The notes under the pieces: model-generated
Told to the model about the DNA's origin: nothing
The model's input: only the letters and a program-made list of their open reading frames with translations
Databases searched by the model: none
Translations under genes and position numbers: made by a program
Shown here: piece by piece, positions 37,591-49,544 of the stretch
Layout of the letters: the number at the start of each line of letters is the position of its first letter
How positions within the stretch are numbered: the stretch's first letter is position 1
NCBI GenBank assembly: GCA_026026165.1
Contig: JAPEUD010000083.1
Span: forward strand, 1-64,000
Origin: Sarea resinae
Lineage: Eukaryota
DNA: 64,000 nt
Direction: 5' to 3'

Positions 37591-40500
37591 TCATTCACGT
37601 CCTCGCGGATGCCATCGCCTCTTACTCATCGTAGGGCCTGCCCCAAGACCGCCGCTCAACACGCGACCCAGACCGGACCCAACACCACTGGGTCTTCTCG
37701 CCCGCCCAGGCGCAGGGGATCCGTAAGCACCGCTACCACCAGCCAGAGGACCCTCGGTTCCGTCCCTACCGGTGGTAGCCACGCCTGTAGGATGCATGTC
37801 CAGATCATCGCGATTGACGTCGAGCTGGCTGACGCTCGAGGCTCTCCTCGCGCGTGCGCGGGCGTCCTCATCTTCGGCCTTATGCAAGCTCTCCGACGGC
37901 AACAGGATAGCGCGATCGAGCTCGTACGGCAATCCACGATGCCGGCCACGGATCTGCATGGCGATGATGACGAGTTTGGAGATGACGTTGAACTGTGAAG
38001 AGAACGACATGTCGGTGGTGGGATAGCCCAGTGATAGCCCCACGGTGCCGTACGCCGATACGATTTCGAAGAGGACGGAGAAGAGCGAGTAAGAGCTGTT
38101 ACCGCTGGCAAGTTTGTCGCCTTCGGCGATAGCAATAATGAAAAGACCCAAGAAAATATACCAGAAATCGAAAGACAGTTGACGCCGCAAATGGGCGCCA
38201 AGATAGGATTTATGTACTCCATCTTCGTCGTCGGCGTCATCGTGCATATCTGCTTTGTAGATACCAAGAGACTGCTCTTCATAGACATTGGTGCGGCGCA
38301 TGGAGATGGCAACGGGAAAGACGGAAATGTACATCATGATCAGGTAGGAAACCTGGGTCCCAGGATGGAGACTTCCAATGTTGACGACTGACAATCCGGC
38401 GGTACGCACAGAGACGGCTTGGAAAAGCCCATCGAGTACCTTGATGCCGGCCGGGAGAACGCTCACAGGGGAGTTGTGAAGCTGTGTCGTCGTCAATGAG
38501 AGGCAAATTTGGGAAAGCGGGCGGCAATTAGACTTACGTCAAGGATGTTGAAGAAAATGAGGTCAATGGCGTTGAGGACGACCAAGACTAAGAAGAGCCA
38601 CCATGTGGCCCCTCTTGGAAACAAGAGCGTGAAGCACCGTCTTGGGTGGTCAAGCAAAAACCGAAGCTCTTCCCAAACACCAGTATCACGCGGAAATATC
38701 TTCGAAGCAAACCAAATCATGAAGCGGAGCATACAAGGGAACCCCGTGTTTCCGATGACAATGAGGAAACTTCCCACCAGAAGCGGGAAGACTGCATATT
38801 GGAAAGACATCATGGAGTCCGGTGTGAGGGTGAAACCGACGTCGTTGAACAAGGTCGCTGCCGTAAATATACCCCTGTGGTCGTTTAGCACTACAGACGT
38901 AGTATTGTTTCCGGAAAACTTACCACCAGATCCTGTTCTGGCCGTCGCTCTTTACCACGTCTCCATATCTCTTGCTTCCTCGTATCCACGGGGTGAGACA
39001 GACCAGGCCGAACAGGTGGAACCCAACAAAGTAGACTGTAATGATCTATTAGAAGCGTCACCAAGAGCTCATTTTCTGGCTAGACTTACTGATGAGAATC
39101 ATCGCAAGAGTCTTGAGAGCCCTGTATTCGATTCCTCCCAACTCTTCTCGCTGTTCTTCCGTCAGATCCACAAACGCCGAATTCCGGCCAATGGTAGGTT
39201 GATAGCTGAGATATGGCGCCGGATCTCTTTCTCGGTCCTGACTTCGGAAAGTATTGATGCTTGCCAAGGTGATTGTGCGAGCTCGGTCTTGAATAGCCTG
39301 CGTATTGAAGGAAGGCGGTCTCGGTAAGCTGCGATTTATGGTGCTGTTTCTTCGAATGTTTAATCTGGAAAATCTCCTCGACCTGCTTTGAGGCGGATGA
39401 TCGGGCTCGTCAATCGTAATATCTCCTTTCGCGGGATGATCGTCTGAGTTGAATTCTTCGTTTCCTTCCTTATCTTCGTCCGCCCCGACCTGTTCAACAG
39501 GGCCCGAAGTCTGTCGCGCCAAAGCGCCGTTGCCCTGCCCTTCTTCGTTGTCCAGCTGCTTCGGAAGATCACCACGATCGAATTCCCGGGGACCTGGGAT
39601 CCTTAGTGTTCCTTTATCAGCAGGATTGCGCTGATTCTCTAAGAAAGCAATATGTTGCTCGGCGCTGCGCGGTTCCGGAAGCCGAGATGATTCAGTATCG
39701 GTCCTCCGAACAGGCTTCACCTCATCAGCAAAAGTGATGTCTCGGTGGAAAGATTGAGCTTGAGGCAGAGTGCTAGCGCTTCCGCTGTCCGAGGATCCTG
39801 TCCTTGGGATAGGAGAATGTCCGCCGCCTCTCGGTGATTGCGATCCTTCATCCGTATCTTCCATGGGGTTCTCGACGCCGAAACTCTTCTCGTTGTCGTT
39901 TTCTATTGCATGGCCGTTGGCGTTGTGACCGTTCCGAAGCACAACAATGGGCCTCCCATTGACGCCTCGCTCTTCGGCTTCAATGTCTGCATCGTCTCGT
40001 GCTTCACTCTTGGTTCTCGACTTTGTTCCCGTACGACGCACAGTTCGAGCTTCGCGGACAATGTGTTGAAAACGCTTCTCGAACCAGTATAGGCGTACAA
40101 ATACCACAAATGAATTGATCCAGATGGGATTTCCAATCATGCCGATAAAGTAGAGTACGATCTGAACGAAGCCCAAATTAGTCGGGGACGTATCGTTTGT
40201 CGCATGACCTTCTCATACCTGCTGATAGAGTAACAAGTCGTTGAAATTGATGCTGCTCCGAAATTAGTGACCAACGAAGCATCATCACTGTTCACGATAT
40301 ACTAACGTATTCAAGCCACTCTGTGTTGCTGCTCCACTCGACTGGAACAAGGCATCTATATACGCTATGCCTCCACCCGGATACAGCATGATCGACCCAA
40401 GGATGCTTAGACTGATCAGATATGTATCTAGAACCAGATACAGAGTTAGAGGCTGAATCTGGCAAAGAAACTGCACACAGAGGGAGAGTCCTGACAGTGA

Positions 40501-42319: not shown

Positions 42320-44481
42320 TCAGGAGCGCCCGAAGCCATTCGCATCCTCTCGTGATTTGCTCGTGGCCGGCGATGCATTAGACCAGCTAGCAAATGTCAG
42401 CTCCAGTAGTGTAAAGAAACATAAGAGACACTAGATACTTACATTCGAACCTTCTTATCATCACCTGCTGATGCGAACATGCACGGGTCCTTCGGATTCC
42501 AGGCAACCGCATTGACGCAGCCAGACTGGTGCCCCTCCAGAGTCTCCACAAGAGTACCATTCTCCTTATGCCAGATATATATGTGCGAATCTACCGAGGA
42601 TGTCAGCCTTTGAAACTTTCGATGCTCCGCAAGTTATTGTCGAACCTTCACTTCCACTTATCACGAAGTTTTCACTCGCCCCACCAAAGGAACTTCGAAT
42701 GATATAGAATCCCTGCTTCTGTCCCAAAAATCTTCGAACAGGCTCGGCAGTCTCGATATCTATCAATTGAATCTCGTCATCCGACATGTTGACTAACATG
42801 TATCTCGAGTCCCGGCTTATATTTAAGCAAGTTAGATCGAACTTGAACGGCAAGTTGTACTCCTCTTCTCGCGTGATGAGATTGTAGACGTAAAGTCTCT
42901 TCTGTGTAGAGATTGTGATCAAACGCTGTCCGTCAGGAGATATACTACAATCCTGAACGCGGTAACCGCCTGACCATGCGTGAATACGGTTGCCACTCAG
43001 GTCCCAAATACACAGCTGCATCTGCTTATCTAGTGAGCCTGTCACAAAAGTTTGGCCGTCCGGAGCCCATGAAGCCGTGGTGACTGGTTCGGTATGGTGA
43101 TCGATTGACAGGATACACTCCCCGCTCTGCGACCAGGAGTTAGCGGCTGGACTTTTAGAAGTGCGGGCTATCATACCATGACATCCCAAACGCGAGCCTT
43201 CTTGTCACGCGAGCAACTAATGAGTCTCAAGTCGTCCGGACTCCACGCGACGTAGGCGACAGCATCACCATGCTCATGCAATGTGTGGAGTACTTCGAAC
43301 GTATCTGTGGCATATATTACGACCGTCTTGTCCTTGCTCGCTGTCGCTAGTTTTGTTCCGTCGTGAGAAAAATCCAGGAACCATACTTCGTCTGAGTGCT
43401 GACTTAGTTCGAGCGTGGTTCTCAATGGGAATTGACTACGATTGCACATATGGTCCGAGTACAATGACGGAGGACTCGCCGTGTTGTGGTACAGGCAATT
43501 GGAAATTTGATTCTGCTTGACCTGGTCCAGGAGGACTGCTAATCGGTGCTCGGGAATCATCATCGAAGGAGATATCGATCCTATATATACACAATCAGTC
43601 TGACGTCTGACTATTGAGAAGCCAGATCAGGAATGCTTCTTACTTGAAAGCTCAGATAACAAATGGCGCCGAGACTCTCCAGTAGCCCCATCCCAGTCGG
43701 CCTGCGATTTGAGGTCGTCGGCCGATTGACACATAATCAAACTAAATACAGTCAGCTAAGCCGGAGGCTTTTGCCATGGCGTAAAGTGCCACAACTAATT
43801 GATCTCCCAACAGGAGGATGCAATGAAACCGTAGAAGTAAGGAATGATGTACCTTGAGAGCGCATGCAATTTCCCAATATCTTGATTCAGTGGAGTCAGC
43901 TCCTGCCTGAGGACCATCAACGCACTTCCCAGATCCCTTTCTTCTAATAGCTCCAGGAACTTTTGCTGCCTCATGGAAAAGAGCATTTGGTTCTTATCCG
44001 CCCCTTCAGCAAGCACGAGTCCACCTCCATAAGCCGGATGGCTACCGTCGCCTATGCTGACTCCACCTCCCCCTTCACCCTGGTATGATCCAAACAGAAG
44101 ATGCTCGGCCTCCGTCCACTCCCCATGAAGAACTGCATTCCGAAATGCGGCAACAGATGAGCTTTCGAAATCAAACCCACTCTCCCGACTCAGAGTCTCT
44201 GCTGCACTTGTATAGCCCAGATCAGTCAAACTTTGTATCAAGATCCGAGTGACCTCCTCCCGATCGTGTCCGAAGTAAGATTGCTGTAACTGCCGCGTTC
44301 TGAACCCCGACGATCCATTCGCATGAGTTGCTGAAGAGCCGTTACCCGTAAACTGGGTACTAGAGTTTCCGTTCAGAGTATTGGAGAGGGCAGCCTTATG
44401 AAGAGGAGAGAGTCCAGATCCATTAGGAAATGATCTAGAGGAGTTCGAAGCAGACTTTGATGATTCGCCATCGAGACGCAT
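42320..44481 (-). CDS. GID7: GID/CTLH complex WD40 subunit Gid7/WDR26 (LisH-CTLH-WD40), 6 exons; true start may lie upstream (see findings)
   Basis: REEVTRILIQSLTDLGY (LisH), FRNAVLHGEW, QQKFLELLE (CTLH), MMIPEHRLAVLL, CLYHN, HSDEVWFLDFSHDGTKLATASKD, GQKQGFYIIRSSFGG, FVISGSED. Confidence 0.9.
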
Positions 44482-47292
44482 CTTTCCGGGACCCAGACGC
44501 CTGCGCTTCGCCTGCGGTTCACCAGAAAAACTTTCAACCAGAGATGATTGTGACAGGCCGGCCTGCCCTTGCAGGTCCGCTTCGAGACTCAGATCGGCAC
44601 CCGAAGCAGATGATTGACGGCTTTCGCTTCTAGTCTGGTCGGAGGACGTACTACGGCGACGGCGGCGATTCGTGGACCTCCGAGGAGTTGTTTGTTCGCT
44701 GATGTTCCTGCGGACGTCTGCGACTGAGGGTACGCCAATGGTTAATGATGAATATACACTATGAGATGGGGCTGAGGTAGTCGTGGATGGATCGTTATCC
44801 GGCGAGCTTGAAGTGGCTAGGGGATCGGAGGTGACTGGGGCTTGTTGTTCTGGATGATTTTCCAGCTTCGCAACGTCAGGAGCGCTCCGATGGAGTACCC
44901 CTGGACATTCAAATGACTGTTGTGTTTAAAGAGGACTATGGACTAGGGATGAGAGTAATCGTATCGTAAAGGGACGTTTGCGGGGCTTGAATATTGGCGA
45001 CGATGATGATGCTGTCAGATGGAGAGACGTTCCGAAGCGGCACCCAAGTACCGAATATACGCTGCGAGCCTGAAGCTGTGGAGCTCTCCACCCCAGAGAA
45101 GACCCCGTGCTCTCTCGAGTCAATATCTGGGATAGAACGCCTGCACTCCAAGCAATGAAATGCAGACTCGAGCGAAACGAGAGCTCCAAGGAAAGACGGG
45201 ACGAAACGGTCAGGTAGTCGATTGTTGTGTGAAGTTGTGTGAAGTAGTAGGTATGTAGGAAGGAAGGTAAGTGGGTGGGTAGGTGAATGCTGAATAGGTA
45301 GGTACGGTAGGTAGATAGGTAAAGAGGAATGGATGTAGAGTAAGGCAGTAGTAAGTAAGGTAGGTAGGTAAGGTAAGTGGTATCGAGCGTATCGACTTGT
45401 ACGGCGGGTACCTCGAAGCACGATGATGCTGGGGATGCTGGGGCAAGAAAGGAAGGAACTTAGGATCTTAGGTGAGGTAGGGGCAGGTACGAAGGAGTGC
45501 CCGGTTATGGATGAAAGCTGCCCTTCGGAACAAGCCGCGTGGGCGGTGGGCGGCAACTTATCTACTGCGCAGTACTTACGGATAGAGTACCTAGGTAGGT
45601 ACTCTACTGCAGTTCGCACCCCGAGAGGGGGGGCACAAGACGAGCATGGAGGGCAGCATACTCGGTGGTCAGGGTTGGCAGCAAAATAACACTACAGCGT
45701 TGGATAGGATAATGTTGCTTCGACATGAGTCCTGAACCCGATCAGGCCCTCTCTCTTCTCTACCTTGGATACTTCTTCAAGAGCACTAGTAGAGATGTCG
45801 TGGACGAGATGATCAAACGTGTCAGTCGTCGTGCGGAGGTCCATGAGGTAGCGTTGTCTACCTCTTGACTGCATTGGTACCGCAGCTAAGGGGATTAGGT
45901 GCTGAGAGCTCCACTTCCTCCCGATAGCTACGGCAGCGCATTGAATGAAGTGTCTTATCTACCTTAGGCTTTGTTGCAGAGCTTCCAGAGGAATGCAATT
46001 CCTCTTACCTGGAGTCTTGAGTGAGCCTCGAAGGATACAGAGATGTCTCGAATACCAAGATTCGAATGAATGCATGTCATCGGATACTTTCTGACTTACG
46101 CCACCTATTCTAATGATGATGATGCAGGTACGGACACAACAAGACAATGGACATTTGGGTCATTTCACGCTCTCAATCGTAAATCCGTGACCTTGTCAGC
46201 TGAAAGTGACATTTAAATCGTCTCCAGACTGTGCAGATCCAGTGATGAGGGCTGATTTAAGTCCAGAGGTCCACAAAATGCCCCTACTGTCAAGAGACCT
46301 GTATCATGAAAGTGGATGTCACGTTGATCGTGGGAGGAGCTGCACACCGGCCCCTAGCCAAGTACTACGCCGATTCGCCTCCCTTGTCTGAAGTCTGTAG
46401 GAGGCAGAAAAGCAAATCCACGGAGTAGCACACGAGCTTTGGGGCTCGTGTATCAAGAATCCGTCTTGCACGGCCATGACGGTCTGACCAGATGTCGAAA
46501 ACATGATCAAATCCCTGAGCCGAGTACTGAAACAACGTTGAACGCTGGCCGATAAATATGAGTGGAATAACGAGGTTCTCGCCGTCCAAGAATGACGGAC
46601 ACTGGCCGATTCCGGTAAGGAATGAAATGTATCAAACAAACAGATTGCCATGTGATGAAGATAGGTGGGTGATGTATCCATGTGCCTCGCGTCGTTGCTG
46701 AGGTGCTGTTTGGGTAAGTGGAGGCACAATAATGGGGCCGAGGGCCCAATACTTCAAGATAACCCAAGGTACGAAGTACCTCGGTGATGTACTCGGAGTA
46801 GGTTTTGTAAGGGACCTGAGGTACTTCGGGAGGCAGCGGATATGATTGATGTACGAAGTACTCGGAGTACTCGAGTGAAGCTGCAGCGAACGAATCGCTA
46901 TGGGGTGCAGTAGTAACAGTGGTACGGCGGGCGACAGGTTGCTCTCGGGAGCAAGGGCTGGAGGCCCGTCCACTGGTAACTGACTTGAAGGTCTGCAGTT
47001 AGTGTAACCTGCAAGTGAAGGTTGCGTTGCCAATGACGAACTTACCCTAAAGCACAAGCTCCCGTAACTGTGTATGCTGGGTCTCGGTCTCAGGCCAAGG
47101 CTACTTCCTCGTCCATCCCTCTTCGAACTCATCAGCAAGAGAAACATCGAACAGCTCTCTCTACGCCAAGAAGTCGTGCAGGAGACAGAAGCTCCCCCCC
47201 AAGAGGTCCCTCTGCCTTCCTCACCACAACCCCGGCGGCTGGGATTATCCATCTCAATCCAATCTCCTGAAGAGCCTCCTCCACAACCCAAA

Positions 47293-49544
47293 ATGGCTCC
47301 TGTAAGCATCTGCTCGCTCGATCTGCTGTTTCTGTCAAATCACTGACCGCAAATACGATTACAGGACTCCAAGAGGTCGCGGCTCGAGGAAGGTGATGAG
47401 CAATATGGTGTGTAATCTATCTCTAGTTTTCGAGACAAACGTGGGTTGCAGTAGATGAATTGCCCATTACTAACTTCATCCCATAGGCTCCATTTTCTCG
47501 GTCTCAGGGTTGGTTAACCGTGCTTCCCCGCTCATTCGATCTAGAGGCTGATCATAGGTGAAGACCCGTCATCGTTGCGGAGAACATGATTGGATGTGCG
47601 ATGTACGAATTGGTAGGTCTATCCTCTTACGAGTCATAAATCTGTTTATAATCTAACGTATCTTTTTCTGATATAGGTCCGTGTTGGCCATGACAATCTT
47701 GTCGGAGAGGTGATCCGAATCGAGGCAGACAAAGCTACCGTTCAGGTGTACGAAGAAACGGGTGAGCGGGCCCAAAAAGGTCATAGAATTCCTGAAATGT
47801 ATCCAGCTAACGGTAATCTCAGCCGGCGTCAAGGTGGGCGACCCTGTTGTCCGAACAGGAAAGCCGTTATCCGTTGAGCTTGGACCTGGTCTCATGGAGA
47901 CGATCTACGACGGTATCCAACGGCCTCTAAAATCAATTGCGTCCGTTTCAGACAGCATTTATATTCCTCGTGGCATTGACGTGCCTTCACTCAATCGTGA
48001 GATTAAATGGGACTTTAAGCCAGGCAAATTAAAGGTTGGAGATCATATCACCGGCGGCGACATCTTCGGGAGTGTCTTCGAGAATTCGTTGTTGGATGAC
48101 CACAAGATCCTTCTACCTCCGCGAGCGCGAGGAACAATCACCCGGATTGCGGATCAGGGAAGCTACACCGTTGACGAGAAGATCCTTGAGGTGGAATTCG
48201 ATGGAAAGAAGACGGAATACAGCATGATGCATAACTGGCCCGTCCGTGTACCGCGCCCAGTGACTGATAAGCTGCCGTCCGAATCACCCTTCATCGTCGG
48301 CCAGCGGGTGCTTGACGCTCTCTTCCCAAGTGTCCAAGGTGGTACTGTCTGTATTCCGGGCGCTTTTGGCTGCGGAAAGACTGTCATCAGCCAGAGTGTG
48401 TCAAAATTCTCGAACAGCGACATTATTATCTATGTGGGCTGCGGTGAGCGCGGCAATGAGATGGCTGAAGTTTTGATGGATTTCCCAGAGGTGAGACCGG
48501 AAATCAGCTCTATGCTGAAAGAAAGCTAACCGATCGAAAAAGCTGTCGATCGAGATCAACGGGAGAAAGGAGCCGATCATGAAGAGAACTTCGCTAATAG
48601 CTAACACGTCGAACATGCCAGTGGCAGCGCGTGAAGCATCTATCTATACCGGCATCACTGTTGCGGAGTATTTCCGCGACCAGGGTAAAAATGTTGCTAT
48701 GATGGCCGACTCTACATCTCGTTGGGCTGAGGCGCTTCGTGAAATCTCAGGTCGTCTCGGAGAAATGCCCGCAGATCAAGGTTTCCCCGCCTATCTCGGT
48801 GCGAAATTGGCATCTTTCTACGAGCGTGCCGGTAAAGTTACTGCCCTTGGTAGTCCTGATAGAGAGGGCAGTGTCAGTATTGTTGGCGCTGTCAGCCCGC
48901 CAGGTGGCGACTTCTCAGACCCTGTCACAAGTAGTACACTCGGTATTGTCCAGGTCTTCTGGGGTCTCGACAAGAAGTTGGCTCAGCGAAAGCATTTTCC
49001 TTCAATTAACACGTCCCAAAGTTACAGCAAGTACACGACACTCCTGGACAAATACTACGAAAAGAACAACCCTGAATTTCCCCGCCTTAGAGATCGCATC
49101 AAAGAGCTTCTGTCTACATCTGAAGACCTGGACCAGGTTGTGCAGCTTGTTGGCAAATCTGCTCTGGGTGATCCCGACAAAATTACCCTGGACGTGGCAG
49201 CTCTTCTCAAGGACGACTTCTTGCAACAAAACGGCTACAGCGAATATGATGCATTCTGCCCTCTCTGGAAGACCGAGTGGATGATGAAGTGCTTCATGGC
49301 TTACCATGACGAGAGTCAAAAAGCAGTTGCACAAGGCCAAGCTTGGAACAAGATTAGGGAAGCGACGAGCGACATCCAATCTCAACTAAGGAGCATGAAG
49401 TTCGAAGTTCCCGGCGATGGAGAAGAGAAGATTTCCAAGAAGGTAAGCATGCCCTGAATTATGCGCGAGCTGCGCTGACCAGATCAGTATGAGGAACTGC
49501 TCCAGCATATGACGGACAAATTCGCCTCGGTGATTGATGAGTGA
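47293..49544 (+). CDS. VMA1: V-type H+-ATPase catalytic subunit A, 8 exons with 5' micro-exons, no intein
   Basis: Walker [53 protein letters not shown]. Exon 1 is ATGGCTCCT (9 nt) and exon 3 is 22 nt. Confidence 0.97.

Follow-up and report, generated by a model that had tools for sequence, protein, structure and literature searches.

Conserved N-terminal extensions which start at codons other than AUG have been reported for WDR26. As described in the accessible portion of the report, the vertebrate extension is ACG/CUG-initiated and that of Drosophila AUU-initiated, the two cases were judged to be independent, and the human isoforms are predicted at 72.1 and 81.3 kDa (Ivanov et al., 2011, PMC3105428). 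A preliminary description of the locus treated below had mentioned such an extension for human WDR26, and the vertebrate precedent is indeed on record in that report. The same portion names YPEL1, YPEL2 and YPEL4, paralogs of the WDR26 partner YPEL5, among the conserved non-AUG extensions, and in its account of the WDR26 extensions mentions neither a fungal case nor an NLS (PMC3105428). According to the part of a preprint available to us, human WDR26 is still without an annotated or intact extension (10.1101/2022.05.02.490320).

In fungi, cpc-1 of Neurospora possesses a near-cognate N-terminal extension which is found throughout the Pezizomycotina (Ivanov et al., 2017, PMC5487733, as far as accessible). 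Leaky dual targeting is common in fungi, e.g., for aminoacyl-tRNA synthetases with dual AUG/near-cognate starts (PMC7049704, accessible portion). Yeast Gid7 and human WDR26 are part of the Chelator GID/CTLH E3 and have the LisH-CTLH-WD40 architecture in common with fungal GID7; translational isoforms of Gid7/WDR26 are not described in the accessible portions of the two sources (PMC12687426, PMC7616709). Our literature search, which covered few subscription papers and no supplements, found neither accounts of GID7 biology in filamentous fungi nor a non-AUG start of a fungal GID7, and priority is uncertain. Wei et al. 2013 are said to list conserved near-cognate extensions in Neurospora.

The window, i.e., the whole stretch of 64,000 nucleotides analysed here, comprises positions 1-64,000 of contig JAPEUD010000083.1 of Sarea resinae (GCA_026026165.1) and carries GID7 on its minus strand. 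Judged by its predicted domains, LisH, CTLH/CRA and a WD40 propeller, the gene is a member of the GID7/WDR26 family. The best PDB match is human WDR26 (E 2e-106; WDR5 E 4e-38), and Pfam LisH_WDR26 scores 60.4 bits against a cut-off of 27; the N-terminal extension has no Pfam match. A database model labelled Sarea resinae (P0121, 608 aa) starts at AUG 44481 and is 100% identical over the match. Two contigs of a single RNA run (X1, share 0.05), at least 99% alike, show two GID7 introns spliced and cover only the 3' part of the gene. The features of the locus are:

45240..45400, minus strand: pyrimidine-rich tract, read from the sequence; putative promoter/TSS neighbourhood
44926..44928, minus strand: in-frame TAA at which the open frame ends, 20 codons above the CUG
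44867..44913, minus strand: long predicted RNA hairpin immediately 5' of the CUG; encloses the uAUG and its stop
44876..44908, minus strand: out-of-frame uORF of 10 codons, weak context (T at -3), lineage-specific
44850..44898, minus strand: intron candidate of 49 nt belonging to a rival explanation, probably unused; its branch A and acceptor are 27 nt apart, and an AG comes earlier, at 11 nt
44863..44865, minus strand: candidate CUG near-cognate start codon, A at -3, G at +4; the homologous codon is near-invariant
44482..44865, minus strand: N-terminal extension of 128 codons, Ser/Thr/Arg-rich, of low complexity, free of ATG in all frames
44653..44667, minus strand: first basic cluster, five Arg; a basic cluster lies at a like place in 47/49 sequences
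44494..44508, minus strand: KRRRL, classical NLS-type motif; K-[KR]-x-[KR] in the last 25 extension residues of 49/49 sequences
44479..44481, minus strand: first in-frame AUG, start of the annotated short form, A at -3; matches P0121
42320..44481, minus strand: GID7/WDR26 coding region, LisH-CTLH-WD40, with five introns; PDB and Pfam matches
43742-43852, 43581-43643, 43127-43176, 42591-42645 and 42387-42442, minus strand: the five GID7 introns, ends read from the sequence

The preliminary description had noticed that the GID7 frame continues upstream of its first ATG, free of stops and of in-frame ATGs, back to a TAA. It had singled out CTG 44865 as a start in ideal context which would add 128 aa, had seen a 10-codon uORF in front of it, and had found no further minus-strand ATG for about 700 nt upstream. 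All of this stands. The frame is open from 44925 to 44482 (148 codons), and CTG 44865, 128 codons before ATG 44481, is the only in-frame CTG which combines a purine at -3 with G at +4. The uORF runs from ATG 44908 to the last base of its stop at 44876, which leaves 10 nt to the CTG; going further upstream, the next ATG is that at 45647. Between 44865 and 44481 the minus strand has no ATG in any frame. The CTG at 44879, a further candidate for the homologous start, was ruled out because its frame, which is not that of GID7, closes within the extension. The pyrimidine-rich tract probably marks the neighbourhood of the promoter or TSS.

A metagenome scan provided 160 confirmed GID7 loci, of which the best 80 were compared. 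Collapsing near-identical loci left 48 sequences, with the window 49 distinct sequences; these are kin, and the counts given below are thus not independent. We take their nearest named relatives to be Leotiomycetes, Lecanoromycetes, Eurotiomycetes, Dothideomycetes and Sordariomycetes. For two loci the start first picked (L007 CTC, L070 TTG) was exchanged manually for one at a better protein motif nearby, and another five, which the anchor pattern had missed, were included manually. The preliminary description had proposed to look among orthologs for a conserved stop-free frame, a conserved near-cognate codon, a conserved KRRRL and dN/dS below 1, and each of the four was found, the third in the form K-[KR]-x-[KR]. 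Above the conserved Met the frame is free of stops and ATGs up to the start motif in 68 of the best 80 loci, it runs to the contig end in nine, and three have a nearer GTG start (L072-L074); thus none of the best 80 has its frame closed before it reaches a near-cognate start or the contig end. Across the extension, stops are absent from the other two frames in only 19/49 and 6/49. The median distance from the start up to an in-frame stop is 21 codons (n=44), 17/44 have this stop within 13 codons, and from the conserved start to the first Met the extension measures 81-142 codons.

Of the 49 distinct sequences, 47 have CTG as the codon homologous to CTG 44865 and 2 have GTG. Position -3 is occupied by G in 47/49 and by A in 2/49, i.e., by a purine throughout; the window with its A is off-consensus. 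G at +4 is universal (49/49), in part because the motif search required it. Elsewhere CTG is an ordinary Leu codon: it makes up 14-46% of the codons in eight core columns where Leu is invariant, and 12% of the remaining Leu codons in the extension. In the best 120 long homologs listed, of 195 found, protein similarity begins at the codon aligned with the CUG, and in 81/120 an L/V-A-D/N/H motif is aligned with the Leu encoded by the window CTG. The pattern used was [VDEA]-[LV]-A-[DNH]; 36/120 listed proteins are without the strict motif and 3/120 without the anchor. A conserved near-cognate codon in favourable context is thus positioned at the edge of protein conservation. This pattern among orthologs makes CTG 44865 the probable start, as had been proposed, and non-AUG initiation of the conserved GID7 extension very probable.

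Sequences with GTG deserve separate mention. In L072, L073 and L074, a divergent clade, a stop is followed by ACC GTG G and an extension of 27 codons, which looks like a minimal GUG-started version; it retains two basic clusters and little else. GTG (V-A-D) replaces CTG in L076, L081 and in the Sordariomycete-like proteins P0250, P0305 and P0310, which suggests that the Neurospora ortholog may start at GUG. The proteins P0297, P0359, P0376, P0322 and P0286 start with M-A-D/E; they were not counted as AUG replacements, and since these are Logan/ENA gene calls the initial M may stand for GTG.

The extension is under purifying selection, and this is so in the main frame only. The dN/dS, taken over six pairs (657 codons), the closest among 19 disjoint ones, is 0.49 (bootstrap 95% CI 0.39-0.62) in the GID7 frame; the other two frames of the extension gave 1.04 and 1.57, the core 0.05. 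A control on the 240 nt upstream (0.65) was dropped as alignment-limited. In the same six pairs 3/3 indels in the extension keep the frame vs. 2/24 in the 240 nt upstream; the indel counts of the 13/19 more distant pairs were likewise alignment-limited and dropped. Selection in the GID7 frame across orthologs bears out the suggestion that the peptide, a Ser/Thr/Arg-rich sequence of low complexity here and S/P/R/A/T-rich across orthologs, is genuine. Synonymous divergence is 0.27 in the extension, half of that in the core (0.57, six close pairs), which suggests an extra constraint at the RNA level. For its first 40-50 nt, the RNA behind the CUG is C/A-rich and without structure.

A further imprint is seen in ATG triplets. 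In 16.6 kb of extension sequence only 5 out-of-frame ATGs were observed, compared to 66+-7 expected from codon shuffling and 46+-4 from synonymous resampling. Downstream of the AUG no such deficit exists (160 vs. 70 and 155; 226 vs. 200 and 212). Out-of-frame TGA (82 vs. 138-152) and GAT (40 vs. 53-72) are also low in the extension, thus part of the ATG deficit may be compositional. The first AUG has a purine at -3 in 41/49 sequences. Purging of out-of-frame ATGs suggests that ribosomes also scan past the CUG to the AUG. Taken with the purine at -3, it argues that long and short forms are both made, as the preliminary description had considered possible, and both isoforms are probably selected.

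The main reading, to which we assign a probability of about 0.85 on the basis of these comparisons, is that GID7 is produced as two isoforms, a CUG-initiated long form and an AUG-initiated short form, by leaky scanning. A single GID7 mRNA would carry two starts which share one frame. The 43S complexes would scan past weak-context uAUGs and a GC-rich hairpin to the CUG in its good context. The fraction initiating there would generate a long GID7 (about 736 aa in Sarea resinae) with a disordered tail and two basic clusters, the second of which would serve as a classical NLS-type motif. The remaining ribosomes would cross a region which is AUG-free in all frames, start at the first AUG and produce the form of 608 aa which does not have the motif. 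The outcome would be a nuclear-importable and a default pool of this GID/CTLH E3 subunit in a ratio set by how stringently start codons are chosen. We infer CUG initiation itself, the isoform ratio, nuclear import and any regulation from sequence.

Compared to the known systems, likenesses and differences are evident. With vertebrate and fly WDR26 the fungal gene shares the family, a conserved near-cognate start above the first AUG and two predicted isoforms, yet it belongs to another kingdom and the extension is longer. With cpc-1 it shares a stop-free upstream frame, near-cognate codons in good context and purifying selection, and in both cases automated annotations include the extension with the start unresolved (PMC5487733, accessible portion). 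According to the same portion, the extension of cpc-1 has several near-cognate codons and bypasses two uORFs of universal conservation (PMC5487733); GID7, in contrast, has one near-invariant CUG, no conserved uORF and an AUG-free extension. In the aminoacyl-tRNA synthetases, too, a weak upstream start adds a targeting signal and the downstream AUG provides the default form; these extensions are mitochondrial presequences, whereas in GID7 a basic NLS-type motif would be added to an E3 assembly subunit (PMC7049704, as far as accessible).

The preliminary description had gone one step further and suggested that the uORF operates a switch between the two starts. Reinitiation too near to the CUG would divert ribosomes to the AUG, so the uORF would govern the choice. 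The close distance of the uORF to the CUG in the window fits, as do short uORFs at about -65 to -105 which recur in Dothideomycete-like loci, L059 included, and an ATG density of 5.2 per kb at -135..-35 vs. 1.8 per kb at -235..-135. Yet an ATG within 135 nt above the CUG exists in only 19 of the 44 loci with enough sequence, mainly Dothideomycete-like and mostly opening uORFs of 2-16 codons; the 25/44 loci with no uATG include most of the Leotiomycete-, Lecanoromycete- and Eurotiomycete-like ones. uORFs common to all orthologs, of the cpc-1/GCN4 type, were thus not found in these loci. The uORFs share no peptide, frame or position, and the uORF at -43 in the window has no counterpart at that position in other loci. 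All uATGs are in weak context: position -3 is a pyrimidine in 25/25, compared to 53% in the background, which indicates tolerated leaky or lineage-specific uAUGs, not a conserved switch. As a general mechanism the uORF/CUG switch is not supported, and as a general design we consider it doubtful; it is compatible with the two-start reading as a lineage-specific addition.

RNA structure in front of the CUG was not part of the preliminary description. In the window the hairpin 44913-44867 has a predicted energy of -21.8 kcal/mol (z -4.07; 1/200 shuffles equally good). Shorter GC-rich hairpins are predicted at about -45..-10 in many orthologs. Folding the segment -45..-5 gave a mean z of -0.9, with 11/46 sequences below -1.65, compared to 0-3/44 in three segments beyond -125 and 6/44 and 8/45 in two intermediate ones. 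A GC stem of four pairs is invariant in one ortholog group, its five-base loop is variable, and the element ends 10 nt before the CUG; the stem of a Pleosporales-like group differs from it and shows a single compensatory change in ten sequences. When the upstream stem is held in a fixed register only 50% of the cells are paired because the hairpin position varies by lineage. The predicted upstream hairpins are moderately supported. For many orthologs the CUG itself is predicted to sit in a loop closed by a stem of five pairs (72.8% of cells paired, mean z -0.98, 10/48 below -1.65); this stem has almost no compensatory changes and is absent from the window. A stable structure from about 15 nt 3' of the start codon is the Kozak/START-type aid to non-AUG initiation. 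At +15..+55 no such hairpin was found (mean MFE -0.4 kcal/mol, 0/49 with z below -1.65; window z -0.49). One may tentatively imagine that the fungal CUG, often looped, is tuned by a GC-rich 5' hairpin, that the nuclear share of GID/CTLH responds to stringency, and that this is a design of the family in vertebrates, flies and ascomycetes; as a whole this proposal is rather unlikely.

Could the CUG be effectively the sole start? The AUG would then encode an internal Met, the near-cognate start would keep GID7 levels low, and the NLS-type motif would be a plain part of the normal protein; the strong conserved context is in line with this. The out-of-frame ATGs, however, are purged up to the AUG and not beyond, and the AUG has its purine at -3. 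Both make sense only if ribosomes scan to the AUG, and initiation at the CUG alone is improbable.

The two basic clusters of the predicted long form admit of two interpretations. Classical monopartite NLSs have the consensus K-[KR]-x-[KR]. Of the NLS-like motifs reported in the preliminary description, RRRRS and a KRRRL directly before the Met, both are present; the Arg run is five long, and GPGK, four residues, separates KRRRL from the Met. The proposed conservation of the second motif is complete in the K-[KR]-x-[KR] form. From the Met through LisH+120 an NLS-type motif occurs in 2/49 sequences only; the WD40 region of P0121 contains two weak matches of the form K-K-x-R. From the placement of the motif, we lean towards the long form being the nuclear one. 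In the other interpretation the basic clusters are no NLS at all; they would be a built-in degron mimic which fills the acidic pore of the WD40 domain, like the N-terminus of YPEL5 on human WDR26. In the accessible part of the pertinent source human WDR26 is indeed reported to bind basic degrons which overlap NLSs (PMC7616709), and [KR]-R-x-hydrophobic is found in 13/49 tails. The degron consensus K-R-X-hydrophobic given in that part (PMC7616709) is nevertheless present in 0/49 extensions, against 49/49 for the NLS consensus. A complex prediction of the WD40 domain with 73 basic-cluster residues returned scores of 0.00 and 0.01, alignment unused, and speaks neither for nor against the mimic. 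We regard a degron mimic as unlikely.

An extension which is real and receives its AUG by splicing has an even smaller chance. An upstream micro-exon might supply the AUG or, in the window, ATG 44908 might be put in frame by either of two introns, 44898-44817 (82 nt) and 44898-44850 (49 nt), the second of which is absent from the preliminary description. Among the 49 sequences the window alone has a branch-like site and a CAG at +16, its CUG context is atypical, and many database models splice into the extension region. Against this, only 10/49 have a branch site together with a YAG within 60 nt from the CUG, the positions are scattered, no AG column is conserved, and splicing leaves the invariant CTG unexplained. 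In the two candidates 27 and 60 nt separate branch and acceptor, compared to 11-15 nt in the five real introns, and both lie within the stable hairpin. The earlier judgment that 44898-44817 is a weak intron is thus substantiated by its 60 nt spacing and its location. The CTG is retained in two contigs free of introns, after 291 nt in L057 and 320 nt in L059; their frame is unbroken to the C-terminus and no in-frame ATG precedes the CTG. Of the junction motifs tested, 5/5 (L057) and 3/5 (L059) matched. Because they have no introns, these contigs may be read as transcript-like. Separately, in L023, L027, L031, L033, L035, L036, L037 and L050 the Pleosporales-like hairpin continues, from its 3' arm, into a conserved GTAAC/GTACG, 11-25 nt above the CUG. 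This looks like a 5' splice site, and splicing from it would take the CUG out.

That the region is an untranslated leader, open through chance or composition, would suit a C-rich, stop-poor sequence in which frame +1 is also stop-free in 19/49, yet it is already refuted by frame-specific selection, apart from frame-keeping indels, conserved peptide motifs and an invariant start, and its probability is practically nil.

Returning to two starts in one frame, such an arrangement would mean that GID7 is mis-annotated across filamentous ascomycetes, being truncated at the AUG, supplied with invented N-termini or fused to neighbours. The annotated residues ahead of the motif in the 81/120 listed proteins (best 120 of 195) number 8-623 aa and are unrelated by inspection; N-termini are erratic because a coding region without an AUG misleads gene predictors. 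Public models (P0023, P0039, P0047, P0059-P0061, P0093, P0097-P0107 and others) fuse GID7 to upstream genes, e.g., to a glycoside hydrolase family 1 gene in Pleosporales or a PF03547 transporter in Aspergillus fumigatus. Such fusions probably arise from the AUG-less extension.

If the two-start reading is true, the CUG would be among the most strictly conserved CUG starts in fungi and a native reporter of start-codon stringency, usable in Neurospora or Aspergillus. It would offer a testable mechanism which divides the GID/CTLH ligase between nucleus and cytoplasm. Non-AUG extensions of WDR26/GID7 in three distant lineages would point to a shared reason to under-produce the long isoform, and the human WDR26 extension would merit a second look.

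Two neighbours of GID7 complete the picture of the locus. Downstream in the window lies a multi-exon gene, 37591-40212 (-), by its translation presumably a TRK-type potassium transporter; the 3.5-kb flanks of the compared loci have no match to it. Upstream and divergent to GID7 is a gene at 47300-49457 (+), which we take from its sequence to be VMA1 (V-ATPase subunit A), and the same arrangement prevails in 22 of the best 80 of the 160 loci, from several classes.
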